DNA from: a virus
Direction: 5' to 3' (one strand)
Virus record (IMG/VR): IMGVR_UViG_3300023178_003744
Location: 13,224-77,223 of that record
Length of the DNA stretch: 64,000 bases
Position 1 is the stretch's first letter; every line of letters starts with the position of its first letter. Below, in pieces: positions 1-26,106 of the stretch. A program made the position numbers and the translations under genes. The notes beneath the pieces were generated by a model. The model was not told the DNA's origin. It worked only from the letters and a program-made list of their open reading frames with translations, and did not search any database.

Positions 1-1
1 T

Positions 2-55
2 GCCGGCACACGAAAAAGCGTGGTAGCTTGGATTTGCGGTCCGCAATTTAAATAA
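2..55 (+). CDS. C-terminal fragment of a PKHD-type 2OG-Fe(II) oxygenase (truncated by window edge)
   Basis: Frame 2 reads AGTRKSVVAWICGPQFK*, matching the G-x-R-x-S-x-V-x-W-x-x-GP-x-FK terminus of phage PKHD/prolyl-hydroxylase-like oxygenases. Confidence 0.7.
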   Translation, partial: AGTRKSVVAWICGPQFK

Positions 56-67
56 ACTAACCTACAG

Positions 68-130
68 TTATAGCATATCTACGGGATGAATGGGCAATTC
101 GAATGACAATAATAAATCATCAGTAAACAT
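68..130 (-). CDS. Putative 20-aa small peptide MFTDDLLLSFELPIHPVDML
   Basis: ATG at 130 and TAA at 70-68; AAGAGGT SD-like sequence just upstream (140-134); fills the gap after ORF 140..823 on the same strand. Confidence 0.35.
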   Translation of the reverse strand: MFTDDLLLSFELPIHPVDML

Positions 131-139
131 ATGACCTCT

Positions 140-823
140 TTATATTAATACATTTTTTAAATCGTTTATACCATCCGAATGCATTGCTATGAAAAACTGA
201 TAGGTTTCTTTGTCAACACAAGATCTTGCTCCGTGAATTATATTTGTGTCTATAACATATAACCTACCTGCTTCAATTTCAAAATCTTCAAAGTCTTCTA
301 CTTGCGGATTCATGCTTTTAACATCTCGAGGATTAGATCGTCTACGTTGCTTATCAAATTGTATCTTAACTTTATCAGGTTCAGTTGTTCCCCATAGACG
401 TAGTATAGGAGAAGGCATCCATGTGTCTGTATGTGGCCAGAAAAATGATTCTGCATCCCAGCGTAATATTGCACTCCTTACCATGTGCTTCTTAATAGGT
501 TTAAGTACAGCAAATGCACTTTCGTCTAATACTTCTGTTGAGACTGTAGCATCGGCGTCTAGGAAAAATTTTTCTGGGCGAGCACGAATCCATTCATCTA
601 ATGGATAACATATTGGCTCTGGATTGTTAAGCATACTGCCGTTTTGATTTACCAATGGTAAGCCATATCTTGGCAAGTGAGCCTTTTCTTCTCCCCACTT
701 TCTAAAAGCATACTTATACTTTTTCATACATTCATAAAAACTGTCTACATCAAAAACCATGCTAGTTTTTTGTAGTACTGTAGGATGAAAGTCTATATAT
801 TCTTTTTCTTCGAGCATGTTCAT
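140..823 (-). CDS. Aspartyl/asparaginyl beta-hydroxylase-like 2OG-Fe(II) oxygenase
   Basis: HxD (WPHTD) plus distal His (DTNIIHGA) and GRLYVID strand, typical of the cupin/AspH fold. Confidence 0.65.
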   Translation of the reverse strand: MNMLEEKEYIDFHPTVLQKTSMVFDVDSFYECMKKYKYAFRKWGEEKAHLPRYGLPLVNQNGSMLNNPEPICYPLDEWIRARPEKFFLDADATVSTEVLDESAFAVLKPIKKHMVRSAILRWDAESFFWPHTDTWMPSPILRLWGTTEPDKVKIQFDKQRRRSNPRDVKSMNPQVEDFEDFEIEAGRLYVIDTNIIHGARSCVDKETYQFFIAMHSDGINDLKNVLI

Positions 824-1404: not shown

Positions 1405-1415
1405 ACTAAAATTAT

Positions 1416-2528: not shown

Positions 2529-2539
2529 GAAAATACTTA
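2529..2539 (-). promoter_or_regulatory. Late-promoter-like TAAGTA box 5 nt before the ATG at 2528
   Basis: Minus strand reads TAAGTA-TTTTC-ATG, the same geometry as the TAAATA-N5-ATG sites elsewhere in the window. Confidence 0.4.
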
Positions 2540-3187
2540 TCCAGTAATTAAATTCCTAATATATTTTGCTTGCCATTTTAATCCTTCTTCACCAAAATGG
2601 GCACCTTTGTCAACTATATATTCGTGAAATAAATCATCACCTAATACCTCTTCAATACACAGTACATTATGATCATAGTATTTTTTATATGTACTATATC
2701 CCCCAAATGTTTGGAAAAATGTTAAATTAAAATTATTTCTTATTGCTTCGAAAGTATTACTGAATTCTAATTCACTTTCTATTGTAGGAATTATTTTTAA
2801 CCTGCTTTTGTAAAAATTCCTAATTTTCAACGGTCCTTTACTTGTAAGTTTTGGTTGATAAGTTATTGCATGAGATTCACGATCAAGCCAAAGCCCCCAA
2901 TAATTTGACAATTCCTTTTTTAAATATTGCATTGGATCTATTATTTCGGGCATGTAGGTCCATCTCCATGCAGTCGTTCCCTGAAAAATGTGATATGTAG
3001 GTTCGTTAATTTTTTTTGATAAATGCATTATCAAAGCTGAAGAAAAATGTATGCTAGAGCCAGCATAAGAAAAATTATAAATTTTCCAAGATGGTTCTAA
3101 TAAAGCTAACTGTTTTGGCCAATTATCAAAATTATTAATGTGCGGTTGGCCCCAACTCCAACTACAACCATAAACATGTATTCTCAT
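2537..3187 (-). CDS. SGNH/GDSL-like hydrolase or acyltransferase
   Basis: N-terminal YGCSWSWG (GDS-like block I), NFSYAGSS (block II), C-terminal DKGAHFG (catalytic His block). Confidence 0.55.
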   Translation of the reverse strand: MRIHVYGCSWSWGQPHINNFDNWPKQLALLEPSWKIYNFSYAGSSIHFSSALIMHLSKKINEPTYHIFQGTTAWRWTYMPEIIDPMQYLKKELSNYWGLWLDRESHAITYQPKLTSKGPLKIRNFYKSRLKIIPTIESELEFSNTFEAIRNNFNLTFFQTFGGYSTYKKYYDHNVLCIEEVLGDDLFHEYIVDKGAHFGEEGLKWQAKYIRNLITG

Positions 3188-3903
3188 TACTTTCCTTTTT
3201 TAGGTATCAGTATGAAAGATGATATTTCTACGTTTTTTACAAATTGATACTTGTGCTGAGCACAAAATTGTCTTATATACGGAGTATCAATTTCTCTAAT
3301 AGGATTATCATTCAAGTGTTCAAATTGTATCAACGGTCTCCACTTTTCAATAAGTTTGTTTGCTCCTTTAATGATAGCAATATCACTACTTTCAGCATCA
3401 ATTTTTATAAAGGACAAATCTTCAATTTTTTCTAAAAATACATTGTCGAGTGTAGAAGATTGCATTTCAATAGTAAACCAATTTGGTAATATTTGTTTCT
3501 TAACATTGTTATTCACATCGTGTGGAAGAAGTGGTGAGAGCAACGGCGTGTGCAAAACCGTATTGTGTTTTGCATCATCTTCTACCATATCAAAATACCG
3601 TGTAGAATAACCTATATCTTGATTACTGCAATGAAATTGTACAGTTTCTTGCTTATCTGATAAAAAATAATGATAAGCTTCTAAATTATTTAATTTTTTA
3701 TTTTTGATGTCTTGCATGATTAGTTCATAACTACTCTCATGCGCATCTATAGCGTATACTGTTTTAAATAATTTTGTATATTCTAAAGTATTATGGGTAC
3801 ACTTGCCAATTCCAACTTCAATAGCTGTGCTATTTTCATGCAAAAGTCTTTTTGAAATTAATGTACCTATACCTGTATAATGAAATAATGTATTACGATC
3901 CAC
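3187..3903 (-). CDS. FkbM-family SAM-dependent methyltransferase (likely GTG start at 3903; ORF open to 3951)
   Basis: AIEVGIG motif I, VYAIDA, TLD...FIKIDAES.D..IIKGA..LI.K.RP.I.FE, characteristic of FkbM. Confidence 0.8.
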   Translation of the reverse strand: MDRNTLFHYTGIGTLISKRLLHENSTAIEVGIGKCTHNTLEYTKLFKTVYAIDAHESSYELIMQDIKNKKLNNLEAYHYFLSDKQETVQFHCSNQDIGYSTRYFDMVEDDAKHNTVLHTPLLSPLLPHDVNNNVKKQILPNWFTIEMQSSTLDNVFLEKIEDLSFIKIDAESSDIAIIKGANKLIEKWRPLIQFEHLNDNPIREIDTPYIRQFCAQHKYQFVKNVEISSFILIPKKGK

Positions 3904-5041
3904 TTGATATCCACTTATAAAGTTCGGGATTAAGTGCACGCCAATGTTCATTTCTTATTTTATTCATTATTGAATCCATATAATGAAATTTTCGTATATC
4001 ACCCGTTTGATTTATCTCATTTTGTAAAAGTTTAAAAAATACTTTATATGGTTTATATTTATTTTTCAACAACCAATTGTTTATTTTTTTCTTAAGGCTA
4101 TTTTTTGCTTGATCAGGCAGATTACGTATTTGCATGTAATTTGGTCCGCTTATTAACGAATAACGATGATCAAACTTATTAGTAATACAATAGTCCATTA
4201 ATCTATCAACTATATTAACGTTATATATACTTGCAACACTTTGTATACTTAATTGATCAAAATTTTTGTTAAACCATTCTATAGTTGCTGTTGTGTTCTT
4301 CCATGTTGACCCTTTACGTAAAAAATCGTTCATCTTGCCATAAGAGTCTACGCTTAATGCAATAGATACAGATTTACATTGCTTAAGTATACCTATTAAT
4401 TTATTGTTAGGTATGGTTGTTGCATTGGTGACTAAATGAATAGTTAAATTTTTAGTGTCGCATTTTTCTATAAGACTTATCATTTTATCTTGCTCTAATA
4501 GAGGTTCACCGCCTAAAAACTTAATATGCTGTACTCGAGAAAAATCACCTTTATCTAAAAAATTATTATTTACTACACCTTTATATGTATCAAAAGGAAA
4601 ACTCTTGTCTTTTTTGCTTGCCATTTGTTCTAATTTTTTTGCATCAGTGTACCAATTGGTGCTTAACGACGGGCCGCACATTCTGCATTTATTGTTACAT
4701 AAATTACTAAACGCAATGTCTAAAAAACTTATATACGGATCTGTATGTTCTCTCAAGCTAATTGTACCAAGATAATCTTGTACACTCGGTTCTAGTACAT
4801 CAGTTCTATAACTTTTATTTGCAATTTTTTCTTCTTGATAACATCGTGTGCAACCTGGATGAGCTTCGTCTTTTTTGCATTTATCTCGTAAGTTCTCTAA
4901 ATACTTATCATTAAAAACATTAGGGTTTGATATGTTTATTGACTTCGGTTTATCAACATCATAAAATACACAACATGGTGAAATTTCTCCATCGGGACGT
5001 ATAAATAGAGCGTTTAAGGGCAAAGGGCATCCAAATTTCAT
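3893..5041 (-). CDS. Radical SAM protein with N-terminal twitch/SPASM-like domain
   Basis: CPLP...DGEISPCC...CTRC, then CNNKCRMC and LGGEPL. Confidence 0.9.
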   Translation of the reverse strand: MKFGCPLPLNALFIRPDGEISPCCVFYDVDKPKSINISNPNVFNDKYLENLRDKCKKDEAHPGCTRCYQEEKIANKSYRTDVLEPSVQDYLGTISLREHTDPYISFLDIAFSNLCNNKCRMCGPSLSTNWYTDAKKLEQMASKKDKSFPFDTYKGVVNNNFLDKGDFSRVQHIKFLGGEPLLEQDKMISLIEKCDTKNLTIHLVTNATTIPNNKLIGILKQCKSVSIALSVDSYGKMNDFLRKGSTWKNTTATIEWFNKNFDQLSIQSVASIYNVNIVDRLMDYCITNKFDHRYSLISGPNYMQIRNLPDQAKNSLKKKINNWLLKNKYKPYKVFFKLLQNEINQTGDIRKFHYMDSIMNKIRNEHWRALNPELYKWISSGS

Positions 5042-5053
5042 AAATATATTTAT
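5040..5053. promoter_or_regulatory. Palindromic bidirectional late-promoter-like element ATAAATATATTTAT
   Basis: Perfect 14-bp palindrome with TAAATA on both strands, between divergent genes 3893..5041(-) and 5067..5666(+). Confidence 0.6.
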
Positions 5054-5066
5054 TATAGGAAAATAT

Positions 5067-5666
5067 ATGTTGTTGAAAAAATATGCAGAAACTGCTGAAC
5101 GTTGTCAGCGCAATTATGATATAACGCAGCTATTACCTAAAGAGCATGTAGATTATATTTTATCAGTTTGCACAACTATGCCATCAAAAAATAATAAAAA
5201 TTTGTATAGACTTTTGGCTATACAAAATACAAGCATTTCTAAAAAAATATATATAAAAGGGGCATGGGCAGCTGGCGATCTCAAATTAAAAGAAGTTCCT
5301 AATCAATATAGAAATGGCCAAGTATACGCACCATTATTACTAATTTGGGACGGGTCTATTTGTCCTGAAGGCAGGAATAGTAGAGAAGATCATCTTATGG
5401 CTGTAGGTATTTCTAGTGGTGCTGCTGCATTAGCAGCAGCAGAGCTTGGGTATAAGACCGGTTTCTGTGTATGTTTCGAAGAGAAAAAAGTTGAAGGTGT
5501 TTTGAATAAACATATAGGTCAAACTTTAAATTTAAAAATTACACTTATGTTAGGTATAGGTTTACCAGACAGCCGATTTGATCGTACAGAATGTGTTTTA
5601 AACGATAAAGTTGTCTATACATGTGGTTCTTTTAACAAGACCACACCTATTTTAGAAATACATTAA
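5067..5666 (+). CDS. Nitroreductase-family flavoprotein
   Basis: RCQRNYD, MPSKNN, AVGISSGAAALAAAELGYKTGFC and LMLGIG motifs. Confidence 0.8.
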   Translation: MLLKKYAETAERCQRNYDITQLLPKEHVDYILSVCTTMPSKNNKNLYRLLAIQNTSISKKIYIKGAWAAGDLKLKEVPNQYRNGQVYAPLLLIWDGSICPEGRNSREDHLMAVGISSGAAALAAAELGYKTGFCVCFEEKKVEGVLNKHIGQTLNLKITLMLGIGLPDSRFDRTECVLNDKVVYTCGSFNKTTPILEIH

Positions 5667-6865
5667 CCAAATACCTTCATGTCAGTTAAATGACTAGGTA
5701 GTATGTCAAACAACTGCTGTTTTTCAGTAGCTTTAGGCACGCATAGACCACAACCACAGTGCTTTCCAGGACCTAACGGGCATTGAATTACTGGCATTGT
5801 ATTATTTTCTATATTACTTCGTAAATTTTCTAGAATTTTTCTATTTTCAGTAATTGATCCGATTGGGCCTCGAGTACCGTCAAATCTTGCTTGGCAAGTT
5901 TGATGATGCCAAATAGTATCTGTTTGTTGTTCTATATGCAAAAAGAACCAATTTACACTGCAATGCCAATTTCTAAATTTAGCAAACTCTAAAAATTGAC
6001 TCTTTTTCCATTCGCCGTCATTGCTACAAACTTCCATTGTTCTACTACCACAGCAAGGCCTTCCTAATTCTCTTGCAAGTTTTTTCTCTTGTGATTTTTC
6101 AGTTTGAACTGCACTAGCTTCATGAGATACTTTTGCTTCTTTTGCTACTTTAGACTCATTCAATTTAGCATTTTTATTGGCCCAATACTCTTTAAACCAA
6201 GAAAGTTGTTCGTCGGTATATCTATGAGCAAAGCTGTTATGACTGTCTTCATGTTCACCGATTAATCTGGGAACAAATCCTATGCCGTCTCGATCTAATT
6301 GTAAACATAAATCTTTGCATTCTTCAAAATACTCTGCATGGAACATAACATTGGTTTTCAATGGAAATTTCTTTTCAGTAAGATAATAAATGTTATCTAC
6401 TACTTGTTTTTTAAGCTTTTGATGAGCTTCGGCGTGATAGCTTATTGTAATAAAACCATAGTTTTCGATTATGCTGTCAGCCATTTTCCTACTAAAAGCT
6501 CCGTTACTTGTAATAGTAAGGTTAAGCATAAATTTTTTCTTATACTTTTCTTTGTAAGTTTCTTTTAGCCATTCTCCAAACTTTAAAAAGTTTGGATTTA
6601 CTGTAGGTTCACCTCCAGTAAAATTTAAATTTAAGCGTTTATTAGTTTTGTATCGTGTTAGGAGTTCGCCGTATTCAAATACAAAATTAGCAGTATCTTG
6701 CAGTGTTTCTAAACTTGCATGAGGTGAAAAATTATCATGTCTATGTGCCGGACAATAAGTGCAGTCATAATTACAACGACGGCCTACATCCCAAGTCACA
6801 GTTAAATTGTGTCCATCTAACAAATTTACTGCTTTAAAATCAGTTTTTTCAATTGTTTCGGTCAT
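5663..6865 (-). CDS. Radical SAM protein with C-terminal Cys-rich region
   Basis: CNYDCTYC, TGGEPT, PCCG...WHCSV...TC...C...CGCGLC. Confidence 0.9.
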   Translation of the reverse strand: MTETIEKTDFKAVNLLDGHNLTVTWDVGRRCNYDCTYCPAHRHDNFSPHASLETLQDTANFVFEYGELLTRYKTNKRLNLNFTGGEPTVNPNFLKFGEWLKETYKEKYKKKFMLNLTITSNGAFSRKMADSIIENYGFITISYHAEAHQKLKKQVVDNIYYLTEKKFPLKTNVMFHAEYFEECKDLCLQLDRDGIGFVPRLIGEHEDSHNSFAHRYTDEQLSWFKEYWANKNAKLNESKVAKEAKVSHEASAVQTEKSQEKKLARELGRPCCGSRTMEVCSNDGEWKKSQFLEFAKFRNWHCSVNWFFLHIEQQTDTIWHHQTCQARFDGTRGPIGSITENRKILENLRSNIENNTMPVIQCPLGPGKHCGCGLCVPKATEKQQLFDILPSHLTDMKVFG

Positions 6866-8175
6866 ATCATATACTTTTCTAAGTTAGGGCATACTTCTGC
6901 TATGCTTTCATTGCGCATAGTGTCTAATTTTTTAGTGTAGCTGCAAAATTCTTGCCAGTGATCATTATAGTAACTTTCACTATTCATATATTTACATACT
7001 CCGTTTACAATTCTATGAGCATGTTCTACAACGTGTTTTTCAAAATTATTTTCTTCAATCCACGTAAGAAAATCATTAAAACGTTCTGTAAGTCTTGCTT
7101 TTTCTTCGTTCGGTAACACTCTTATATTTAAATGCTTTGGGTGATGTGCTACATGATGAGTAATTATAGGTTTACCTCTAGTACTGTTTATTTTTTTAAA
7201 ACCACTTTCTGTAAGTTTCCATTTCATAAAATCAATCATATGATCCACAGTATAAGCTGTTACAGTAAACGCTAGCCAACTTCTAACATTTCCTGCCATA
7301 TTGTCTAATGTTTGTAAATTTTTTAAAGTTTTGAGCCATTTTGCTGGATGCCGTTGGTATTCAAAAACTTTATCCATTCCATCTATACTTGCACCTATCT
7401 TAACTGATTTAAACCATTCCCATAACTTTTTAACTCGTGATGGTAATGTACTCATATTTGTGTTGTACTCTACAGAAATATTTTTAGCGTAATCATTTTG
7501 TACACAGTATTCTAAGAAATCATAATGGCGCTCAATTAGCATAGGTTCGCCGCCTGCAAAATATACATGCTCTATAGTATTTGCATTTTTTTCTAATTGT
7601 TGCCAAAAAGGTTCATAATTAGGCCAGTCAAATTCTTTCGCATGCAACCCTTTACTGGTATTTTCAATTGTAATATTTCCGCTACTATCTTTAAAAGTAT
7701 TTGATCCAGTTAATTTTATCCAATCTTCATACCAAGCACTACTATCAGTAGGTCCACACATTCTACATTTTAAATTACAAAAATTACCAAATCGTATATC
7801 ATAATGGCGTACTGGCACTAACTCTGTGTTTATATTACCGTCTTGATCAGTATCAGCTTTAGCCTGCTCTAGTGTATAGTCCCATTGTTTTAGTTCTTCT
7901 GTACGCCTGCTATGTAAGCCGTTGGATTCTTCTGTTAAACACCGGCCGCACTCTTGACTCCATTGATTATTAAGCATATTAATGCGCATAGCACGCATTA
8001 ACTTAGAATTTCTACTATCGTCTAAGCTATCAAATCCAGCATTGTAAGCTGACCCATCTTGTTTACGCAAAACACCTTTATTAGGTGTTACGTTAGCTTG
8101 ACAGCAAACTCTTACATCGCCATTAGCTCGTACTGCTTGAAAAATCCAAGGTATAGGGCAAAAAGTGTTTGACAT
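6862..8175 (-). CDS. Radical SAM protein with N-terminal twitch domain
   Basis: FCPIPW...GDVRVCC...CGRC; CNLKCRMC; AGGEPM. Confidence 0.9.
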   Translation of the reverse strand: MSNTFCPIPWIFQAVRANGDVRVCCQANVTPNKGVLRKQDGSAYNAGFDSLDDSRNSKLMRAMRINMLNNQWSQECGRCLTEESNGLHSRRTEELKQWDYTLEQAKADTDQDGNINTELVPVRHYDIRFGNFCNLKCRMCGPTDSSAWYEDWIKLTGSNTFKDSSGNITIENTSKGLHAKEFDWPNYEPFWQQLEKNANTIEHVYFAGGEPMLIERHYDFLEYCVQNDYAKNISVEYNTNMSTLPSRVKKLWEWFKSVKIGASIDGMDKVFEYQRHPAKWLKTLKNLQTLDNMAGNVRSWLAFTVTAYTVDHMIDFMKWKLTESGFKKINSTRGKPIITHHVAHHPKHLNIRVLPNEEKARLTERFNDFLTWIEENNFEKHVVEHAHRIVNGVCKYMNSESYYNDHWQEFCSYTKKLDTMRNESIAEVCPNLEKYMI

Positions 8176-11834: not shown

Positions 11835-11839
11835 AAAGA

Positions 11840-11869: not shown

Positions 11870-11873
11870 TTTC

Positions 11874-15232: not shown

Positions 15233-15244
15233 TAATCGCTTCCA

Positions 15245-15258
15245 ATAAATATATTTAT
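15245..15258. promoter_or_regulatory. Second copy of the palindromic bidirectional late-promoter-like element ATAAATATATTTAT
   Basis: Identical palindrome between divergent genes 14213..15232(-) and 15257..16582(+). Confidence 0.6.
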
Positions 15259-16582: not shown

Positions 16583-17132
16583 CTAAAACTGATTGATTTC
16601 TCCATTGATCATTTACGTAGTTTACAATAATACTACTTCTATCATTACTTAACGGTTTTAGACTATGATATTCGGTTCCTGTGTTTTTAAAAAACCAACC
16701 AGAATTTTCTTTTGCTGCAACTTGACTATTGTTTAATATCGTACTGTCTTGCAATGATGTTAAATAAACTTGCAAAGTAAACAACTTTGCTTTATCATCA
16801 ACATGACTGTGTAGATAGCTTCCTTTAGCATCGTTACAAAGTTCAATTCTTGTCTTACATTTAATAAAGTTTTGATTACACACATTTCCAAAAAATTCTT
16901 TACATTTAGCAGTATCGAATTCTTTACCTAACTCGTATAATAATTTAGACTGAATAGAATTACAAAATATTCTATTTTTGACGTCAGTTCGTTGGCCAGA
17001 AAAAGTATCAAATGGAAATTTTTGGTATTCATCTACTAGTGCGTCAAAGACTGATTTTTCCAGTAAATCATCAAATTTAAAAAATGTATAACTACTAGAT
17101 ATCTTTTTGTATATAAAATTGTAATTTATCAA
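16575..17132 (-). CDS. 2OG-Fe(II) oxygenase
   Basis: LHSHVD (HxD), LQVYL, EYHS (distal His) and RSSIIVNY (2OG-binding Arg-x-Ser). Confidence 0.75.
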   Translation of the reverse strand: MINYNFIYKKISSSYTFFKFDDLLEKSVFDALVDEYQKFPFDTFSGQRTDVKNRIFCNSIQSKLLYELGKEFDTAKCKEFFGNVCNQNFIKCKTRIELCNDAKGSYLHSHVDDKAKLFTLQVYLTSLQDSTILNNSQVAAKENSGWFFKNTGTEYHSLKPLSNDRSSIIVNYVNDQWRNQSVLVN

Positions 17133-18055: not shown

Positions 18056-19134
18056 TATTTAAATTGCTCCGAAAAAGGATCAAATTCCTTACCACACTTC
18101 ATAGCACAGACTTTCAACTTTCCAGCTTTGCAACTAGGTTTATTCCAACTTTCTTCTATGTTGTTAAATATACCTGTATCAAATACCGCCTTTAATCCGT
18201 GTTTTTTTGCACTGATAGCATCTTTTCCACCAACACTTTTTATAAAATCCCATACTTGTTCAACTTTTGGATCTTTATGCCACCATTTATACATACGACC
18301 TGCGGTCCAACAACACGGCATAGCAAGACCTTCTGCTGTAATAAACAAGCTGCCTTCGTCTTTTACCTTACAAAATATTTCAGCTTGATCATAATATGCA
18401 TCCATCGTACCGTGTTTTTGTTTGATATCGTCATATTGCTTAATAGCTGCATTTTGATACTGTGCGTTAGGTTTTTTTAATTCAGCAGTTTTATTTCCTT
18501 TACGATCCACTGCTTGGTGTGTTTCCTTTTTTTCGCTTTTTGCACTTATAAATCTACCAGTTTTCTTTGCAACAAATCTTTCAAAACCTATTTTTTCACT
18601 TAATAATTTGGCTTGTTCTACTTGATGTTGATTATGCTCAAATATTAAAAAATCCCATCGGCTACGGCCGCCTGCATTTGTAAATGCTCGCATACTGCGT
18701 TCTACGTTATCCCATACTACACCTTGACGATAGATATGATTAGTATCGGACATTCCATCTACACTAAAAATAACAGCGCCCATACGACCAAAAGTTTTTG
18801 CAAGTTCCTGCCACCATGCTTCGTCTCTTGCACCTGCATTTGTATTCATTGATAACCACATTTTAGAATTGTGTTTTCTAAAATATTGAAATATCTCAAG
18901 TGTATCCCGTGCAACAATAGGGTCGCCTAGGTTGCCACACATGTACATAGTGTTTAATTGTTGGATAAATTCTGGTTTAAAAATACGCTTGCAATCATCA
19001 AGTGTTAATTCGCTAAGATCGATATGTGGATTTATTGCGCCACCGTTTTGGTTACGATCACACATTGGACAACTTGCCTGACAATTTTGTGTATTTTCTA
19101 AGTGTATGGTTCGTATATTTTCATACTTGTACAT
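18055..19134 (-). CDS. Radical SAM protein with C-terminal SPASM/twitch domain (likely start MYKYE at 19134)
   Basis: CQASCPMC, CGNLGDP, FC...MPCC...CAMKC; TAATG coupling with the upstream stop codon. Confidence 0.9.
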   Translation of the reverse strand: MYKYENIRTIHLENTQNCQASCPMCDRNQNGGAINPHIDLSELTLDDCKRIFKPEFIQQLNTMYMCGNLGDPIVARDTLEIFQYFRKHNSKMWLSMNTNAGARDEAWWQELAKTFGRMGAVIFSVDGMSDTNHIYRQGVVWDNVERSMRAFTNAGGRSRWDFLIFEHNQHQVEQAKLLSEKIGFERFVAKKTGRFISAKSEKKETHQAVDRKGNKTAELKKPNAQYQNAAIKQYDDIKQKHGTMDAYYDQAEIFCKVKDEGSLFITAEGLAMPCCWTAGRMYKWWHKDPKVEQVWDFIKSVGGKDAISAKKHGLKAVFDTGIFNNIEESWNKPSCKAGKLKVCAMKCGKEFDPFSEQFK

Positions 19135-19799
19135 TAGTAGTGACCAAATCCCCAGTGTTTCTCTCTGCATGACCAACAATCTTTACAAATTACTGACCAA
19201 TTTTCTGTAAAAACTTCACAACTACGAGTTTCAGGTAATAAGCTGTCTAACACACCTAAAGATTTATACAGCTCTTGTACACCGCGTTTATCAATATTGA
19301 TTAAAGGTCGAAATGATCTAACCCCATAACGTTGTGGTTTTTTATGATGTTTTTTCTTTTTACGACCTTTATCGTAAATATGTTTGCCGTCATATAGTTC
19401 GGGTGCTTTCTTTTTACTAGGATTTGCAGTCAAACCTACAAAATGTGCTTGTATTTTTTTTTGTTTATACAAATCCATTACTATATCGCTCATATCTCCA
19501 ATGTAATTGTTCGCAGCGTCTGTTCTTATTGTGCCTATAAAATGCTCACCAAAATTAACACCTGTAAGTTCTGTAATTTTATTCATTACTCTTTTTGCAT
19601 AAACTTCTTGAAATGGTTTATTTTCTGCTATACAACTTATAGGGTGAATAACAGTATCGGAACGTTCTTCTTTTACATACAATGCAAGCATATAACAAAC
19701 TATAGCACTATCAATACCGCCGCTAAGTTTAATACCTACTTTTTTAACAAATTTTGAAAATTCTATATTAATGATATCTTGTTTATTATAAAATTCCAT
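19134..19799 (-). CDS. QueC-like PP-loop ATPase
   Basis: LSGGIDS; RPLINIDK; TRSCE...CKDCWSCRE, like the QueC Zn site. Confidence 0.8.
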   Translation of the reverse strand: MEFYNKQDIINIEFSKFVKKVGIKLSGGIDSAIVCYMLALYVKEERSDTVIHPISCIAENKPFQEVYAKRVMNKITELTGVNFGEHFIGTIRTDAANNYIGDMSDIVMDLYKQKKIQAHFVGLTANPSKKKAPELYDGKHIYDKGRKKKKHHKKPQRYGVRSFRPLINIDKRGVQELYKSLGVLDSLLPETRSCEVFTENWSVICKDCWSCREKHWGFGHY

Positions 19800-19801
19800 T
19801 T

Positions 19802-20023
19802 TTATTCCAAAATCAACTTAATGTCTTTTCCTGGCCCAATTTTACTAGGAAGGTCGCCATATGTATCCACATACCATTCAATAACTGCAATATACCAGTT
19901 ATGACTATTGTGATGTGCTTTTTTATTAAACTTATGTATGTTATTATTAGTAGCTTGCATAGTGCTCAAAGCACGAGCACTTTCTTTTTGCAAATCTCTA
20001 ACGCTTAGATTACTTATATCCAA
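19802..20023 (-). CDS. Small hypothetical protein (73 aa)
   Basis: Tightly packed ORF within the operon, Asn/His-rich middle. Confidence 0.7.
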   Translation of the reverse strand: MDISNLSVRDLQKESARALSTMQATNNNIHKFNKKAHHNSHNWYIAVIEWYVDTYGDLPSKIGPGKDIKLILE

Positions 20024-22619
20024 TTCTCATAAACCTTGTATAACCTTCTAAATTTAATTCATCTGAAAACAGTACATCCGACATTGGCGTTTGTGATTCA
20101 AACTGTTGTAAATTACTCGATCTATTAATATGCTCATCTATTTTCAAATCATTACTTTGTAATATTAACAACTTTCCTTGTGGCAATCTATCATACCATA
20201 AAGTAAAGTTTTCTATATGTTCACAGCTTGTATTAATAATTGTGTCCGGTCTTGCTTCTAAAGTTACTTCTCTATCTTCTTGTGCTGTTAAAGTTTTAAA
20301 TTCAAAAAAGGAATAATCAATGTTATGTATATCCATTGTCTGTGCTTTAAACTTCCAATCGCCTGCTACTATATCTTTATTAAACAGTTCTGCAATTTTC
20401 CAGCAAGTAGGATCACTATCAAAGCTGTACATTTTAGTAAAATCTACACCATGCTCTCGTAATAGCGGCACAACTGTTGCATACCATCCAGCACATAAAA
20501 ATACTATACCTAAATTTTCTATTGCGTCTAATGACGACACTGTATTTGCTAACCATTTTTTACTTAATATTTGTCCTCGAGAGAAGCAATCAAAATTAAA
20601 ATTTTCATTATCTTTTAATTTTTTCAAAGGCTCTACAAATAAGCTACTTGTGTATTTTTCTAATATACGCCATAACGCATGATAGTTGTTAGACAATAAA
20701 CTAAATTCATCTTTTAAATCAGGCAATAACCTAGATAAACTGTATAAGTTATTCTCTAGTACAGCTTTCCGTAAGTCATCATTTTCTGTCAATTTAAAAA
20801 TACTGGACAAATCATGATCGTTGTACATACGCCTTACATTTGAAATTTGTCCTTGATACAATATTTCAAATCTATCTAGTGTATCAATAATGTTCATAGA
20901 CTTAGGTATAATTACACTGCTTTTAATTTGACTTTCTATACCTTCATCTAACGATACCACTGCTTCTTGCTCTGGGTATTCTATATTATCAAATGTATTG
21001 CTAGGCACAAACGCAACAGATTGAAACTTTGCGTGTAACCATTCAAAATCATTTATTTTCTTTAACTTTTCGGGATCTGTTTTATTACTTTTTCCGTAAT
21101 TTCTACCTTCATTAGCACCTTTTAAAATCCAATCTTTCAAAGGTCCTTCGGCATGCGTACACCAAGTTTTAAGTCTTTCTTCGGTTTCATTATCTTTTTG
21201 ACGGTCGATTACTTTGCTTGCTAACTTAACACATTCTCTAAAAGCACTACGCCAAGCACTAAATTCATCTACTGCAAAATTTGTTAAATTACTTACAGTT
21301 GGCATAGGCTTAAATTTAGAACTTATGCTTGTAGTCATATCAGTTTTTGATATATCCATATGTTCTGTAAGTGCACGTGGCAACAGCTTTACACCACCGT
21401 AGCCATACTCTAGACCGTTAATTGGGTTTTTACTTCTCCATACCTTTACATAGTCTTTTTCGTTTTCAGGAGTAATATAATCAAAGTTAAAATCATCAAC
21501 AATAGTTGCGTCGCCGTCTACTACCCAAAACATATCAGAATTAACTTGTTTTGCAGCTTCTATGTGTGCTTGATGAATACCTTCTATACCGTGTACTCTT
21601 TTTGCTCTAGGAAAACGTTTTAACAATTCGTCATAATTTTTATCTGCTTCGGGTTCATCGTAGGTTATCATTACTATATCATAATGGCTTTTTTCTGTTT
21701 TCAAATACTTATGGCCGATACGAGGCGGGTTAACGTACATGCTCTTAAACATTTTGCTTTGATCTTCGTTATATACATCTAACGGTACATCCATGCTGAG
21801 CTCATTTACTAAGTGTTCTCCAAGGATTTCCATTTCGTATAAAAGATCTTCTTCGCCCATTTTAGAATATGTGTCAGTCCACATCTTATTAACATATTCA
21901 AAATCACGGACATTAACATAATCCCAATCAGTGCAATTTGTAAGATAAGTGCCAAGGCGGGCACCATACATTGCCCATATACCATTATCTACATCTAATC
22001 CTACAGTTTGCCAAATACGTAATCTGTCCATGTTTTTCTTGTGTATTTTATGAAAATTAGCAAGATCTACTTTTTCACCTTCTCTTAGAGTCATTTTTAC
22101 GCCTTCTCTAAATCCAGCACGCCATGCTTGATGCGGAGTTGCATTGTTGTATACTGTACTACATACTCTATCTATCTGGCAATATTCTACATCCCAGCAA
22201 AAGTCTACTTGAGCTTGGATATTATTTGGATCAGCTGACTCGTGTGTTTTCATATTTTCGATTATATGTTTTGGCCATGACTTGATGCCGCCGTTACCGT
22301 ACACTAATCCATTAATTATATTCCGACCGCTCCAACTTACAACACTGTTTTCTAAGTCAACATGATCTTGAAAAACAAGTTCTTGATTTATAAAGTCGCC
22401 GTTGATTACATTATCAGCATCTACAATAATTAATCTTTCTGTATCAGATAATTTTGCACATGCTTTATGTGCAGCATCAGAACCTTCAACACCGTGCACC
22501 CGTTTTGCCCATGGTATTTTTTTAATTAAATCATTGTAATTTTTTTCTGCATTAGGCTCATCATAACTTAAAAAAATCACGTCATAATCAGCAGGTTTCA
22601 ATATATTAGTCATTCTCAA
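20010..22619 (-). CDS. Fusion of two tandem GT-A-like glycosyltransferase domains and a C-terminal class I methyltransferase-like domain
   Basis: Duplicated YD(V/I)...YDEP.A.KNY..L....P.AKRVHG.EG...AH...A...VD(A/G)D...NPINGL.YG.GG.K..P...AWR..FRE.VK; C-terminal FSRGQ..SK.WL...GWY...SFDSDP...INTSCEH. Confidence 0.7.
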   Translation of the reverse strand: MRMTNILKPADYDVIFLSYDEPNAEKNYNDLIKKIPWAKRVHGVEGSDAAHKACAKLSDTERLIIVDADNVINGDFINQELVFQDHVDLENSVVSWSGRNIINGLVYGNGGIKSWPKHIIENMKTHESADPNNIQAQVDFCWDVEYCQIDRVCSTVYNNATPHQAWRAGFREGVKMTLREGEKVDLANFHKIHKKNMDRLRIWQTVGLDVDNGIWAMYGARLGTYLTNCTDWDYVNVRDFEYVNKMWTDTYSKMGEEDLLYEMEILGEHLVNELSMDVPLDVYNEDQSKMFKSMYVNPPRIGHKYLKTEKSHYDIVMITYDEPEADKNYDELLKRFPRAKRVHGIEGIHQAHIEAAKQVNSDMFWVVDGDATIVDDFNFDYITPENEKDYVKVWRSKNPINGLEYGYGGVKLLPRALTEHMDISKTDMTTSISSKFKPMPTVSNLTNFAVDEFSAWRSAFRECVKLASKVIDRQKDNETEERLKTWCTHAEGPLKDWILKGANEGRNYGKSNKTDPEKLKKINDFEWLHAKFQSVAFVPSNTFDNIEYPEQEAVVSLDEGIESQIKSSVIIPKSMNIIDTLDRFEILYQGQISNVRRMYNDHDLSSIFKLTENDDLRKAVLENNLYSLSRLLPDLKDEFSLLSNNYHALWRILEKYTSSLFVEPLKKLKDNENFNFDCFSRGQILSKKWLANTVSSLDAIENLGIVFLCAGWYATVVPLLREHGVDFTKMYSFDSDPTCWKIAELFNKDIVAGDWKFKAQTMDIHNIDYSFFEFKTLTAQEDREVTLEARPDTIINTSCEHIENFTLWYDRLPQGKLLILQSNDLKIDEHINRSSNLQQFESQTPMSDVLFSDELNLEGYTRFMRIGYK

Positions 22620-23115
22620 AACTCATAGGTAAATTTTTCTTTGTAAAGATACTTATTGGTACATTAATTTTATCTGAAATTTTTATTTCAATACAGCGCT
22701 TTTCAAATAGCTCGTTTACGGACAAAGTTATAGTATCAAGTAAATTATGTGGTGAATTTTTTTCAGTTACATAAAAAACTATCCAACTGCTAGTAACAGA
22801 TTCAATATCTGCTTGGTCCGTTAAAGTAATTTTTAAAATATTATCTACTTTTGTGATTATTATTGTACTATCTGCATTATTTTTTACATTCACAAAACTT
22901 TTATAGCTAACAGTAAAATTATTGATTGCTTTTTTTTCTACTAGGCAATATACATCATGTATTTTTTGAACTTGAAAACTGTGAAGATTAACTTTTCCTT
23001 CTACAAAATCTACATATTGCTGCTTGCTTACTTCCAGTAAATCTAAAGTGTTGTCATGAAAATTGATACATCCTAAAATAGTTCCTGTATTTTTGTCAAA
23101 TTTTAGATAAAACAT
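22606..23115 (-). CDS. Hypothetical protein
   Basis: 169-aa ORF packed within the operon. Confidence 0.7.
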   Translation of the reverse strand: MFYLKFDKNTGTILGCINFHDNTLDLLEVSKQQYVDFVEGKVNLHSFQVQKIHDVYCLVEKKAINNFTVSYKSFVNVKNNADSTIIITKVDNILKITLTDQADIESVTSSWIVFYVTEKNSPHNLLDTITLSVNELFEKRCIEIKISDKINVPISIFTKKNLPMSFEND

Positions 23116-23939
23116 CAGTCATCTAGCCAATCTTTAATATCATCATTAATAAAATTATCTTCTACATAGTGTAAAAATTGGTGTTGTTTATAATTATTAA
23201 TAAAAATTCCATCAGCACTTGCATAGTACATCAAACTTTCAGTCCAACTTTGAATGTTTCGAACTCCTTGCAAAGGTGTTTTCATGTGAACTAGATTAAA
23301 TTTATTTTTATCTAATTTAATATTGCATAATTTAACACACATTGCTGCGGCGACATCTATACTGCAAAATTCTTGTTTTTGCTTAGGAGTGAATATGTTA
23401 GCAAAATCATCAAAATTATCTACTATTAATTCTAAATTATCAAAAAAGTTATCATTTGTTTCATTTTTTTCAAAGTAAAAAAATGCACTGTAAATGTTAG
23501 GTAAATTATTTGCTAAAAATACTTTCCTATGCTTATAATCTTGGATGATCTTACGCCCTCTATGATTTACAATTTCTGTACTAAAATATAATTTAGTATC
23601 TTGTAACTCATCCCATATATTAGATAAATTACACAATACCAACACATCTGTGTCAAAAACTATAGTACGATTGTACGGTGTTAATTTGTAAATAAGCTTC
23701 CTATTATTAATTCTCCACTCATTAATTTCAGTTAAATCATTTTCAATTGGAATAATTTTATCAAACAAATGTATTTTTTCATCAGGCACTTTATCGTTAG
23801 TAATAATACTTATTTTTTCGTCTTTACTAAATTTTTTTATACTTTGGGCTAGATAGCAAGCTTGCAATACATAGTTAAATTTAGTATTATTTTGTGCTAC
23901 TACACACACTCCTTTATTCATTTGCAAAGTCCTTGTCAA
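23115..23939 (-). CDS. GT-A fold (GT8-like) glycosyltransferase; start may be MNKGV near 23921
   Basis: LTPYNRTIVFDTDV DxD motif; IYSAFFYF; C-terminal LVHMK. Confidence 0.7.
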   Translation of the reverse strand: MTRTLQMNKGVCVVAQNNTKFNYVLQACYLAQSIKKFSKDEKISIITNDKVPDEKIHLFDKIIPIENDLTEINEWRINNRKLIYKLTPYNRTIVFDTDVLVLCNLSNIWDELQDTKLYFSTEIVNHRGRKIIQDYKHRKVFLANNLPNIYSAFFYFEKNETNDNFFDNLELIVDNFDDFANIFTPKQKQEFCSIDVAAAMCVKLCNIKLDKNKFNLVHMKTPLQGVRNIQSWTESLMYYASADGIFINNYKQHQFLHYVEDNFINDDIKDWLDD

Positions 23940-24756
23940 TAATTTTATCTAACTCAAACTTATTCATTAAATGCACATTGGTATTTTTCATTACATGTAA
24001 ATTATAATCACCTCTATTATTAGACAATACTTTAATAGTACTGTTGTCTATTGATAACGGTATGTCTACATCAAATGAATTATACAGTGTATAAGGCAGG
24101 TCGACTACAGTTTTACTTTCAGTAAAACCATTTATAATATGTGCTGCAATACTAAATGCATAATCATTTCTAAATTTTGTACTTGTAACATTAAACAACG
24201 ACCGATAGTAACTCCAATTATCTCTTACAAAGCCTACTAAATCAAAAATATTTTTTGCTAAGTTGCTTTTTTTGAAGTATACTACCGTTGCCCAGTATAA
24301 AGGAATACTAGCCTTAGATACTCTACCTTGTTTAACTTGAGGTACTGTGTCTGCAAAGTCTTTATATGCTTTACCAATACATATATCATTGTTACTTTGA
24401 AAAAGATTTAATAAATTAGAATTAGCAATAATAAAATCTGTGTCAATTAACAATGTTTTATCGTAAGGGGTCAGTGTATAAGCATCTACTCTATTAGAAT
24501 TATGCCATAGATCTCTAATCTTAAGTGATCCTTGCGTAAATGTACGATAATTCTCAAAATCGGGAGTATTTGTAACTACAATATTATCTACATACTTAGA
24601 ATAAAACGGATATTTTTGAAAATTATCTGTATCGTTTGTAACAACAGTTACAGGTAATTTTAAATATCGTTTTACACGCTTGGCACAGTATATTGCTTGT
24701 TTTACATAGTCAACTGTTTCATTATTAATTGCAAACAATAATACTCCGCTAGACAC
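23914..24756 (-). CDS. GT-A fold (GT8-like) glycosyltransferase
   Basis: LTPYDKTLLIDTDF DxD motif; WATVVYFKK; FRNDYAFSIA; VHLMNK; paralogous to the downstream gene. Confidence 0.7.
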   Translation of the reverse strand: MSSGVLLFAINNETVDYVKQAIYCAKRVKRYLKLPVTVVTNDTDNFQKYPFYSKYVDNIVVTNTPDFENYRTFTQGSLKIRDLWHNSNRVDAYTLTPYDKTLLIDTDFIIANSNLLNLFQSNNDICIGKAYKDFADTVPQVKQGRVSKASIPLYWATVVYFKKSNLAKNIFDLVGFVRDNWSYYRSLFNVTSTKFRNDYAFSIAAHIINGFTESKTVVDLPYTLYNSFDVDIPLSIDNSTIKVLSNNRGDYNLHVMKNTNVHLMNKFELDKIIDKDFANE

Positions 24757-25087
24757 TTTTGTTCCTAATTAAATCGGCAATATTATCATAATCAGCTTTG
24801 TACTGTTTTAAAGCAACATTATAGGTATTCCAAACTATATGATAAAAGTCATACAAGTTAGTAACACAGATTGGTATATTATCGTTGTCAAGAAAGACTG
24901 CGTCTTCTTCATCTTTAGACAAAAACAAGCCGATTTGTCGCACTAATTCAGCATCAGCTGTGAAGGCGCCGCCGTTATAATACACTTGTAATTTTTCTAA
25001 AAACTTATCGTATATGTAAGCTCTTTGTCTATTGATTGATTCTAAATTTTTACTAGCTTCTAAAGCTTTAACTAATCTTTGATCCAT
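24749..25087 (-). CDS. Hypothetical protein (first gene of the glycosyltransferase operon)
   Basis: 112-aa ORF directly after a sigma70-like promoter. Confidence 0.7.
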   Translation of the reverse strand: MDQRLVKALEASKNLESINRQRAYIYDKFLEKLQVYYNGGAFTADAELVRQIGLFLSKDEEDAVFLDNDNIPICVTNLYDFYHIVWNTYNVALKQYKADYDNIADLIRNKSV

Positions 25088-26103: not shown

Positions 26104-26106
26104 TTT

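Follow-up and report, generated by a model that had tools for sequence, protein, structure and literature searches.

Organisation of the enzyme block and its fibre neighbourhood

The window analysed here is a stretch of 64,000 nucleotides (positions 13,224 to 77,223 of IMG/VR record IMGVR_UViG_3300023178_003744) from an uncultured giant phage of a salt-marsh/coastal habitat. This is a T4-related jumbo phage and not a pelagimyophage; its gp46 has its closest relatives in the jumbo phages PA5oct, Phosso and Atu_ph07 (44-50%). Coordinates refer to the window, and genes lie on the minus strand unless the plus strand is given. An enzyme block of about 28 kb is flanked by fibre genes on the left and right. 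As originally predicted, it adjoins fibre genes at its right end and continues past the left window edge, where it extends a further 2.7 kb, as far as a fibre-like gene that carries an Mtd_N domain. The block encodes 11 radical SAM (rSAM) enzymes, four sugar-transferase domains, methyltransferases and oxygenases, all of them soluble, and a membrane segment was detected in none of the 30 window proteins tested, which points to a cytoplasmic setting.

On the right, three tail-fibre paralogs (27097-31919) have a common N-terminal region of 180-300 aa, and one of them (29811-31919) carries a Phage Tail Collar domain (E 4.8e-15). Next to these are two paralogous 325-aa fibre-tip-like proteins (25126-27087), which are mutually 34% identical and one of which is 17% Thr; the same kind of domain is joined to a fibre N-terminus in ORF355 of the cultured Ralstonia jumbo phage RsoM2USA. 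The fibre and tip proteins contain 0-3 Cys residues. The first module gene after the fibres (24749-25087) encodes a 112-aa protein whose position is kept in related loci and which has no family match in Pfam, PHROGs or the PDB.

Radical SAM enzymes

Eleven rSAM ORFs had been predicted and all 11 were recovered, each with one CxxxCxxC motif. Ten pass the cut-off of Pfam PF04055, and the eleventh, 15257-16582, falls below it (24.5 vs 29.5 bits). Seven are full-length members of NCBIfam NF033640 (N_Twi_rSAM, twitch domain-containing radical SAM protein; cut-off 170 bits), with scores of 192-426 bits: 3893-5041 (245.5), 6862-8175 (368.8), 9025-10422 (426.4), 10419-11834 (320), 11874-13133 (plus strand, 225.9), 13117-14223 (194.7) and 15257-16582 (plus strand, 237.6). 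In this architecture the auxiliary twitch Fe-S domain is N-terminal, and the seven ORFs combine a CX3CX2C core with five invariant N-terminal Cys residues. A SPASM-like match is seen at residues 5-68 of 3893-5041, where the rSAM core spans residues 111-263, and at residues 23-85 of 15257-16582. NF033640 contains no characterised enzyme and is named in no paper of the literature searched, and no close solved structure was found for its members in the window.

The other rSAM ORFs form two pairs of paralogs, in which the core gene 1416-2528 (PF04055 57.7 bits) is matched by 5663-6865 (34.7 bits), and the core gene 18055-19179 (32.7 bits) by 14213-15232 (42.3 bits). The last of these is a classical rSAM with a C-terminal SPASM domain (PF13186, 23.9 bits, residues 240-310). 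Similarity of the twitch rSAMs to the cytosylglucuronate decarboxylase BlsE is weak (TIGR04466 E 4.7e-5; 7vob E 5.6e-4).

Glycosyltransferases and methyltransferases

The four predicted GT-A domains are supported, as two domains of a fusion protein and two GT8/glycogenin-like genes. The 869-aa fusion (20010-22619; AF2 model pLDDT 86.7) consists of a GT-A-like domain D1 (residues 1-300), a paralogous GT-A-like domain D2 (residues 313-532), a helical linker and a class I SAM methyltransferase. D1 and D2 each have an invariant DxD (D67/D69 in D1). The model of D1 (pLDDT 88.4) finds mainly GT-A folds as its best Foldseek matches (TarP, SunS, PBCV-1 A64R; probability 0.87-1.0), with a VIA Z of 10.7. 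D1 also resembles the nucleotidyltransferases IspD and MobA (Z about 9), and its transferase chemistry is therefore only predicted. The second methyltransferase that had been proposed occupies residues 670-869 of the fusion and has a class I SAM-methyltransferase fold (VIA Z 15.9), while the proposed FkbM-family methyltransferase, 3187-3951, has been confirmed by PF05050 (E 1.4e-10) and TIGR01444 (50.5 bits vs cut-off 37.7).

The paralogous GT8-like genes (23115-23939 and 23914-24756) match glycogenin-1/2 by family profile over the DxD region (E 5e-6) and have homologs of 34-35% identity in RsoM2USA. Between them and the fusion, in the conserved fibre-proximal module, lies a gene for a 169-aa protein (22606-23115), whose position is kept in related loci and which has no family match in Pfam, PHROGs or the PDB. 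A 185-aa ORF of similar size occupies the corresponding place in RsoM2USA, with no detectable sequence similarity to it.

Oxygenases, PP-loop proteins and smaller ORFs

The original prediction of four 2OG-Fe(II) oxygenases holds for two ORFs. One ends at base 55 (1-55, plus strand), where the window contains the 3' end of a 193-aa ORF whose start lies beyond the left edge (L001:12697-13278; PF13640 2OG-FeII_Oxy_3 E 1e-14, NCBIfam Fe2+-dependent dioxygenase E 2e-12), and the other is an Asp/Arg beta-hydroxylase-family protein at 820-1404 (PF05118, Asp_Arg_Hydrox, E 3.3e-11, 43.7 bits vs cut-off 22.6). The remaining two candidates have an HxD motif only: the 227-aa protein 140-823 has no match in Pfam, PHROG or the PDB, with a weak homolog in a bacterial island (31% over 84 aa), and 16575-17132 has no family or PDB match. 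The latter is the first of two ORFs without a family (16575-18055; 185 aa and 308 aa), neither of which has a significant match. The supposed SGNH-like protein, of 216 aa (2537-3187), matches nothing in Pfam, PHROGs or the PDB, and that assignment was not upheld.

Two PP-loop ATPases had been described as QueC-like; their SGGADS and SGGIDS motifs are present, but matches to QueC or NAD synthase are weak. The ORF 8175-9035 (SGGADS) exceeds no HMM cut-off in Pfam or NCBIfam and is similar by BLASTP to 19134-19799 (SGGIDS), which has weak QueC, NAD-synthase and Asn-synthase matches; a third copy is located outside the window, on its left side (L001:11435-12250). The predicted nitroreductase-family flavoprotein (5067-5666, plus strand) passes PF00881 (24.9 bits vs cut-off 23.5). 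A 73-aa ORF (19802-20023) has tblastn matches in 71 related phage loci and none in bacterial or RsoM2USA loci, and no Pfam or Atlas match. A 20-aa ORF at 68-130 was rejected as a precursor peptide, being conserved nowhere.

Expression signals

The motif TAAATA occurs 16 times in 44 upstream windows of 50 nt, as opposed to about 1.4 expected, and is common to the structural genes. The boxes originally proposed as late ones are enriched approximately 10-fold upstream of gene starts, but one is also present in front of the gp55 sigma gene, and TAAATA alone therefore does not prove late expression. Two RNA libraries contain contigs that agree with island genes to within 0-2 mismatches; carried-over DNA is a possible source of these contigs.

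Related islands in phages and predatory bacteria

The same mosaic island is found in about 240 IMG/VR contigs, and the conservation figures given here refer to the best 80 of the 240 matching stretches. Across these 80 loci there are 76 rSAM families, and the median locus has 9 rSAM ORFs in ~21 kb. The island varies in its middle part, whereas genes 9025, 1416, 18055 and 20010 stay conserved. The most conserved gene is 9025-10422 (80-86% identity); the core gene 1416-2528 has a median identity of 86%, and 18055-19179 has ortholog-like matches in 70 of the 80 loci (median 65%). Accessory families of related islands include UDP-sugar dehydrogenase, cytidylyltransferase, carbamoyltransferase, GDSL, Asn-synthase, Trp-halogenase, AMP-binding/carrier-protein genes, TauD, Asp/Asn hydroxylase and five nitroreductase-type families. 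A minimal version of the island lies directly behind the fibres of RsoM2USA, in an order that matches the window: fibre, tip domain, GT8, GT8, the ORF of similar size, D1, N-twitch rSAM, D2 and methyltransferase. A fibre-adjacent module co-oriented with the fibres is thereby seen in two distant phage lineages.

Homologous islands are also present in Bdellovibrionota-labelled chromosomes, beside rpoBC/ribosomal operons, with orthologs that are 38-64% identical; core genes of the island are common to the phage and Bdellovibrio-type predatory bacteria. Orthologs of 9025-10422 (53-63%) directly adjoin those of 1416-2528 (59-64%), and the order 9025, 1416, D2-type GT is retained in two bacterial genomes. 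Further orthologs correspond to 5663-6865 (45%) and 6862-8175 (49%). The bacterial ortholog of 18055-19179 (45%) overlaps a UDPG-dehydrogenase (UDP-sugar dehydrogenase)-family gene upstream and a GT2 gene downstream, an arrangement that looks like that of one operon. The GT8-like pair was not found in the five bacterial genomes searched.

Proposed function of the island

The proposal that a phage encodes a multi-step tailoring pathway is well supported. The data show gene families, folds, synteny, conservation and the bacterial context, whereas the glycan nature of the product, its acceptor, the timing and all chemical steps are inferred. Our tentative reading, to which we give a probability of about 0.45, is that the island encodes the cytoplasmic synthesis of a glycan and its modification by radical chemistry, with a virion fibre protein as the probable carrier. 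The original preference for a hypermodified glycan over a modified base stands: a sugar is a better candidate for the product than a RiPP or a DNA modification, because the conserved core includes four GT-A-type domains, and is further favoured by the bacterial rSAM ortholog whose ends overlap the UDP-sugar dehydrogenase-family and GT2 genes. TGT/DpdA is found nowhere in the 77-kb record and QueD, QueE and FolE have no family match over cut-off, which again favours a sugar over DNA modification. Against a glycan, no nucleotide-sugar synthesis enzyme is encoded in the window, and the nitroreductase, Asp/Asn hydroxylase, Trp-halogenase and AMP-binding/carrier genes of related islands would suit peptide or small-molecule chemistry equally well.

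In such a pathway, the core (the two GT8-like proteins, the GT-A/GT-A/methyltransferase fusion and rSAMs 9025, 1416 and 18055) would assemble a short methylated oligosaccharide. The variable set (N-terminal-twitch rSAM paralogs, Fe(II)/2OG oxygenases, PP-loop ATPases, nitroreductase-type flavoprotein and FkbM methyltransferase) would then modify unactivated C-H positions of its sugars, with oxidation, epimerisation, deoxygenation, methylation and the decarboxylation or amidation of uronic acids as conceivable steps. We infer late timing and a virion target; the likeliest acceptor would be a neighbouring virion protein, either one of the fibre-tip-like candidates (25126-27087) or the fibres themselves, and each phage strain would then have a fibre decoration of its own. 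The genes for the rSAMs and the D1/D2 transferases are common to the phages and Bdellovibrionota-type bacteria and would be exchanged between them; the bacteria presumably use the homologous islands for a structure of their own; since these homologs act without any virion, a non-virion target is conceivable for the phage as well.

The same sugar chemistry could instead be directed at the infected cell, where altered nucleotide-sugars or glycans would enter host envelope pathways and remodel a receptor or surface glycan, leading to a superinfection block or host mimicry. Such a role has been proposed for glycosyltransferases of the fibre-linked hypervariable island of pelagimyophages (PMC7029224), the bacterial islands must serve a cellular structure, and genes of the membrane-bound FA_desaturase family are found in the bacterial island as well as in some of the related phage islands. 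This is nevertheless rather unlikely, as the window contains neither a membrane segment nor a lipid-carrier transferase, flippase, polymerase or transporter, the module follows the fibres immediately and in their orientation in both phage lineages, and the GT8 pair was not found in the five bacterial genomes searched. A soluble glycosylated small molecule (aminoglycoside-, nucleoside- or glycolipid-like), made for infection or against competitors, is quite improbable. The mix of twitch rSAMs, GTs, methyltransferases, carbamoyltransferase, halogenase, AMP-binding and carrier protein, TauD and nitroreductase resembles a natural-product cluster, every enzyme is soluble, and the host-side islands occur in predatory bacteria; however, the window has no scaffold-forming enzyme (cyclase, NRPS/PKS module or aminotransferase set) or exporter, and this reading leaves unexplained why the block keeps its place within the fibre module, both in RsoM2USA and in about 240 marine contigs.

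Many SPASM/twitch rSAMs are peptide maturases, and the window enzymes have weak generic matches to such families. Together with the Asp/Asn beta-hydroxylase and nitroreductase families, and the peptide S-glycosyltransferases SunS/ThuS among the fold matches of D1, this could mean that the rSAMs modify protein or peptide side chains (epimerisation, cross-links, hydroxylation) of fibres or of a RiPP, with the GTs as unrelated neighbours. We consider this very doubtful: a search of the window and of 125 accessory families gave no PqqD/RRE domain, leader peptidase, exporter, YcaO or Lan enzyme, and no precursor peptide was found either, the conserved 73-aa ORF being not hypervariable and missing from bacterial islands. 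The few Cys residues of the fibre and tip proteins and the rSAM overlap with sugar genes in bacteria argue in the same direction. Hypermodification of phage DNA bases, of the 7-deazaguanine or glycosylated type, is highly improbable. Known phage loci of that kind do contain an rSAM (QueE) and glycosyltransferases, and the PP-loop proteins have some QueC-like similarity, but this is marginal, with partial model cover (25.2 bits vs 22 over 61 residues for 19134-19799, and 19.6 for the copy in the left flank), and with the NCBIfam QueC equivalog the score is 21.8, as opposed to a cut-off of 150.3. The island also sits in the fibre module, not in the replication module.

Comparison with known systems

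Phage GT genes beside structural genes decorate capsid or tail proteins in the cytoplasm in mycobacteriophages, and the window island is similar in this placement; to our knowledge, a mycobacteriophage system of this kind comprises one to a few GTs and lacks a radical SAM/oxygenase tailoring set. The three-domain order of the fusion 20010-22619 equals that of A064R of chlorovirus PBCV-1, a GT-GT-methyltransferase that extends and caps the capsid N-glycan (PMC7826918). Structures of its domain 1 (2p6w, 2p72, 2p73) are among the best Foldseek matches of D1 (probability 1.00), with similarity at the fold level only (13-16% identity, E about 6e-4), and the chlorovirus pathway operates in a eukaryotic host without radical SAM enzymes. 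The sugar-acting rSAMs BtrN and BlsE likewise combine an rSAM core with one auxiliary cluster domain, which is C-terminal, as opposed to N-terminal in the NF033640 ORFs. BtrN is not among the matches listed for the window rSAMs, and BlsE family scores are far under the family cut-offs; a bacterial ortholog of a window rSAM is placed directly after a UDP-sugar 6-dehydrogenase-family gene.

Radical SAM cassettes also occur, together with fibres and glycosyltransferases, in the host-recognition cluster (HRC) of pelagimyophages and cyanomyophages, a hypervariable island within the structural region in marine T4-like phages (Zaragoza-Solas et al., 2020, PMC7029224); the rSAM genes receive one sentence and no analysis there. 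The window island is alike in kind and place, but its rSAM load is far higher, its phage is not a pelagimyophage, and bacterial counterpart islands are not described in that paper. The original statement that no characterised pathway has this composition thus stands for function, and needs amending in that NF033640 was already catalogued and rSAM cassettes had been noted in a fibre-linked island (PMC7029224). NF033640 itself is only a catalogue entry, and in the window phage it is represented by a seven-fold paralogous set.

Genomic setting and extent of the island

The block of radical SAM (rSAM) and putative sugar-tailoring genes lies on a 77,223-bp IMG/VR virus record, of which the window covers bases 13224-77223; the record's CheckV completeness of 21% would imply a genome of about 350 kb. 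To the right of the island are T4-type genes encoding baseplate wedge and hub proteins, a gp55-like sigma factor and gp46/gp47, with a gp46 homolog that is nearest to those of jumbo phages. A near-DNA search gave no DNA-level match to the window among cultured phages; near-identical DNA is present in many salt-marsh and in seawater metagenomes. The predicted continuation of the island beyond the left window edge was borne out by the fetched 13-kb left flank (L001, the record DNA with this flank), where it goes on with a GNAT gene, a third PP-loop gene and a gene for a 298-aa protein (L001:10564-11460, minus strand). The left boundary is a fibre-like gene (L001:9200-10567, plus strand) with an N-terminal Mtd_N domain (major tropism determinant N-terminus; E 2.8e-11), which gives an island of about 27.7 kb with fibre genes on both sides. 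None of 30 proteins in or beside the island contains a membrane-spanning segment. The 298-aa protein has no Pfam or NCBIfam match and carries a Trp/Pro-rich C-terminal tail that ends in GYC.

Radical SAM enzymes with an N-terminal twitch-like domain

All eleven rSAM ORFs of the original prediction are present at the coordinates given there, each with one CxxxCxxC motif, and ten exceed the Pfam cut-off; they form three paralog groups of seven, two and two. The seven (3893, 6862, 9025, 10419, 11874, 13117 and 15257, named by window start coordinate) belong to NF033640 (N_Twi_rSAM, NCBIfam 'twitch domain-containing radical SAM protein'), with full-length HMM scores of 192.4-426.4 bits against a curated cut-off of 170 bits, whereas the remaining four reach 28-43 bits and are non-members. 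In the seven paralogs the CX3CX2C core is preceded by an N-terminal Cys-rich SPASM-like/twitch-like domain, matched at the N-terminus by Pfam SPASM in six, and cysteines C8, C26, C27, C89 and C92 are invariant together with the core triad C145/C149/C152. In the pair 14213 and 18055 the core is N-terminal, with a C-terminal SPASM domain detected by Pfam in 14213 only, and 1416 and 5663 make up the third group.

The putative auxiliary cluster domain of NF033640 would lie at the end opposite to that in all studied relatives, and a literature search on the family returned nothing. A whole uncharacterised family is involved here, with 6-13 rSAM genes in a phage island and as many as 37 matches in a single bacterial genome, and it is linked with glycosyltransferase domains known from their fold alone. 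To our knowledge, sugar-acting radical SAM enzymes are few, and every one characterised to date showed new chemistry.

Glycosyltransferase and methyltransferase domains

The 869-aa product of ORF 20010-22619 was modelled (pLDDT 86.7) as two homologous alpha/beta domains (D1 and D2), a linker and a C-terminal domain with a class I SAM methyltransferase fold (VIA Z 15.9). Modelled alone (pLDDT 88.4), D1 has top Foldseek matches that are mainly GT-A enzymes (TarP, SunS, PBCV-1 A64R and cellulose synthase BcsA; probability 0.87-1.0, E 2e-4), and its best VIA alignment (Z 10.7 over 138 residues, rmsd 3.2) places it in the Rossmann-like GT-A fold. Together with a DxD motif (D67 and D69) that does not vary among 17 D1/D2 sequences, this upholds two of the four predicted GT-A domains. 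Because nucleotidyltransferases with this superfold come close behind (Z about 9), the models make glycosyltransferase chemistry of D1 and D2 likely rather than proven. The D1/D2 family is recognised in neither Pfam, PHROGs nor PDB sequence libraries, and a D1 profile searched against PDB sequences found nothing. Chlorovirus A064R, an enzyme that elongates and methylates the capsid glycan, has the same GT-GT-methyltransferase order (PMC7826918).

Two paralogous ORFs, 23115-23939 and 23914-24756, may encode GT8-like enzymes: a profile of 27 sequences matches glycogenin-1/2 (E 5e-6) at profile positions 13-104 only, the DxD region included, while no Pfam family passes for either ORF, even at E 10.

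Related islands in phages

Homologs of 9025 number more than 2,000 in a metagenome protein collection, with at least 80% identity in the 120 matches listed, and also occur on metagenome contigs of 160-320 kb. IMG/VR holds 240 stretches encoding relatives. The mapping across related phages proposed with the original prediction, carried out on the best 80 of these, revealed a mosaic in which conserved core genes alternate with variable ones. Median identities of core genes are 83% for 9025, 86% for 1416, 65% for 18055 and 55% for 20010, and a 73-aa ORF is likewise conserved. Loci of at least 20 kb (n = 41) carry 6-13 rSAM ORFs (median 9), and single-linkage clustering sorted the proteins of the 80 loci into 330 families, 76 of them rSAM. 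Accessory families of related islands include nitroreductase, PP-loop, Asp/Arg hydroxylase, TauD, fatty-acid-desaturase-type and GDSL proteins, as well as Trp-halogenase, carbamoyltransferase, AMP-binding proteins with a carrier protein, UDP-sugar dehydrogenase, cytidylyltransferase and Asn synthase.

A minimal island is found at ORFs 346-355 of the cultured Ralstonia jumbo phage RsoM2USA, directly after the fibre genes, in the order fibre, tip domain, GT8, GT8, 185-aa ORF, D1, N-twitch rSAM, D2, methyltransferase, with 30-42% identity to the window proteins. In the RsoM2USA paper the module genes were left unannotated by the authors, whose analysis of ten abundant virion gel bands did not report the module proteins. 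The moraphage paper concerns another lineage (PMC12619734).

The window island is like the host-recognition cluster of pelagimyophages and cyanomyophages, which is a hypervariable, fibre-flanked region with glycosyltransferase and rSAM genes inside the structural module; rSAM cassettes in the pelagimyophage island are mentioned in one sentence (PMC7029224). The window phage falls outside the lineage of those phages: the best matches of its gp46 are PA5oct (49.7%), Phosso and Atu_ph07, and a pelagiphage match was found by the methyltransferase domain only (25.6%). Four clustered N-twitch-like rSAM genes were also observed at 161-168 kb in the cultured Vibrio phage K566 (L082, 255 kb), at 21-27% identity to the window paralogs; this cluster is without the D1/D2 family, and annotated fibre genes are not adjacent to it.

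Counterparts in Bdellovibrionota-labelled genomes

A search of 185,579 species genomes placed close relatives of 9025 from cellular organisms in only six assemblies, at 53-61% identity in five and 31% in the sixth, and five of the six are labelled Bdellovibrionales, Bacteriovoracaceae or Pseudobdellovibrionaceae. Mis-binned phage was considered for the Bdellovibrionota-labelled MAGs and rejected. A gp46 homolog was found in none of the five genomes searched, a 16S gene is present in one, and on a 349-kb contig the island adjoins tuf-secE-nusG-rplKAJL, rpoBC and the S10 operon, which together identify the island-bearing assemblies as bacteria. Five such genomes hold 19-37 NF033640 matches each, in several clusters per genome, and members above cut-off were found in 31 of 151 genomes sampled from the phylum, single-contig genomes included, and in none of 14 control genomes. 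This expansion of N-twitch rSAM enzymes in predatory bacteria is not known to have been reported.

The bacterial island contains orthologs of 9025 (61% identity), 1416 (64%), 6862 (49%), 5663 (45%), 18055 (45%) and 14213 (38%), orthologs of D1, D2 and the methyltransferase at 35-39%, and further genes for GT2, TauD, desaturase-type and hydroxylase proteins. The start of its 18055 ortholog overlaps a gene of the UDP-glucose/GDP-mannose dehydrogenase family, and the end of this ortholog overlaps a GT2 gene. The order 9025, 1416, D2-type glycosyltransferase recurs on a 1.6-Mb contig of a second bacterial genome, and members of the D1/D2 family occur in four of five genomes. The GT8 pair was not found in the five bacterial genomes searched, and the fibre-tip-like protein 26107 as query returned no bacterial homolog.

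A quick maximum-likelihood tree places the clade of phage 9025 proteins (SH-aLRT 100) beside or within the bacterial orthologs, and in other subfamilies phage and bacterial rows are interleaved. This indicates that the rSAM paralogs are probably old and have been exchanged repeatedly between phages and bacteria, with midpoint rooting and long branches limiting this conclusion. The common gene pool offers Bdellovibrionota as a host lead for abundant uncultured marine and estuarine jumbo phages.

Proposed nature of the product and its acceptor

The data point towards a cytoplasmic pathway that would build a glycan and edit it by radical chemistry. Three observations support this most strongly: the transferase domains make up the conserved core, transferase genes keep rSAM genes as neighbours in phages as well as in bacteria, and one rSAM ortholog overlaps a nucleotide-sugar gene and a GT2 gene at its two ends. 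The most likely acceptor would be the virion, specifically the fibre-tip-like proteins encoded at 25126-27087, since two distant phage lineages have the module behind their fibre genes, all enzymes are soluble, and the GT8 genes, with their resemblance to a protein-priming family, were not found in the bacteria searched. Remodelling of the host surface by the island product is a less probable outcome. A soluble natural product, which would fit the carrier-protein and halogenase families of related islands, is also assigned lower odds.

DNA modification and direct protein modification by the island enzymes are likewise given smaller chances. The two PP-loop ATPases predicted to be QueC-like do carry SGGxDS motifs, with HMM matches that are only weak: the Pfam QueC match in 19134-19799 is marginal (25.2 versus 22 bits, residues 160-220 only), and the QueC equivalog score is 21.8 bits versus 150.3 required. 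QueE matches reach E 1e-4 only, and QueD and FolE gave no match in window or left-flank ORFs; the set of QueC, QueD, QueE and FolE at family cut-offs was not found there. No DpdA/TGT (PF01702) match occurs in the 77-kb record, which is about 21% of the genome. For peptide or protein modification, a 20-aa ORF at 68-130 (minus strand) was considered as a RiPP precursor and is without a homolog in any fetched phage or bacterial locus. The 73-aa ORF (19802-20023, minus strand), which directly follows the gene for the GT-GT-methyltransferase, recurs in 71 related phage loci, where it is conserved and not core-variable, unlike a RiPP precursor peptide; it is absent from the bacterial islands and RsoM2USA, matches no family and gave no usable match in an Atlas search. 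Representatives of 125 accessory families of related islands matched 33 Pfam families; no RRE/PqqD domain, leader peptidase or exporter occurs in the 25 commonest of these or among the window ORFs.

Among the remaining island enzymes, the predicted FkbM methyltransferase and nitroreductase were confirmed by HMM searches, which also identified an Asp/Arg hydroxylase. Two of four predicted 2OG oxygenases were verified, the other two (ORFs 140 and 16575) being without a Pfam, PHROGs or PDB sequence match, and the SGNH-like assignment of ORF 2537 was not verified by the same searches. ORFs 17129, 22606 and 24749, like these three and the 73-aa ORF, matched nothing in PHROGs and Pfam at E up to 10.

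Decoration of fibres, if true, would exceed in elaboration any virus-encoded glycosylation of virions known in phages, and it would be a plausible driver of host range. A wider and tentative proposal, which we regard as rather unlikely, is that the N-twitch rSAM radiation, which in the sample examined amounts to 76 rSAM families across 80 phage loci and to 19-37 copies in each Bdellovibrionota-type genome, serves predatory bacteria and their jumbo phages as a shared toolkit for the combinatorial editing of glycans by radical chemistry. Each paralog would install a different C-H functionalisation on a sugar, and phages would swap rSAM cassettes to vary the glycan on receptor-binding fibres, as an enzymatic counterpart to sequence-level tropism switching. 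Such a toolkit would add dozens of radical reactions that are new for carbohydrates, and it would be a new way for host range to vary. RsoM2USA, cultured with a minimal module, may be a tractable system, as may single-contig-genome bacteria of Bdellovibrionota, if in culture.

Promoter motifs, transcription and neighbouring structural genes

The late TAAATA boxes of the original prediction are enriched, with 16 occurrences in the 50-nt stretches preceding 44 gene starts versus about 1.4 expected from the motif's genome-wide frequency. The motif also precedes the gp55 gene, and it thus marks a shared promoter type, not necessarily late timing. It lies 24-35 nt upstream in structural genes but only 10-11 nt before the ATG in four island genes, where it is part of a palindromic AAATATATTT cassette at two divergent junctions (window 5041-5067 and 15232-15257). 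The cassette sets the box at this distance for both strands, which would result in near-leaderless mRNAs. The perfect T4 late box TATAAATA is rarer than expected (5 versus 16), so only the shorter TAAATA is usable. Contigs of two RNA libraries from different studies, one DNase-treated, match island genes with 0-2 mismatches; they cover the island in part, their gaps are no evidence of silence, and with DNA carry-over uncontrolled they give a weak hint that island genes may be transcribed.

A single ORF of 5046 aa occupies window 32571-47711 (minus strand), with the baseplate wedge gene on one side and the fibre genes on the other; in the equivalent position RsoM2USA has a 2541-aa virion structural protein, and the short fetched part of RsoM2USA ORF361 shows no similarity to the window ORF. 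Three fibre paralogs at 27097-31919 (minus strand) have their N-terminal 180-300 aa in common and divergent C-termini, one with a Phage Tail Collar domain and another with a weak Peptidase_G2/intramolecular-chaperone match at its C-terminal end.
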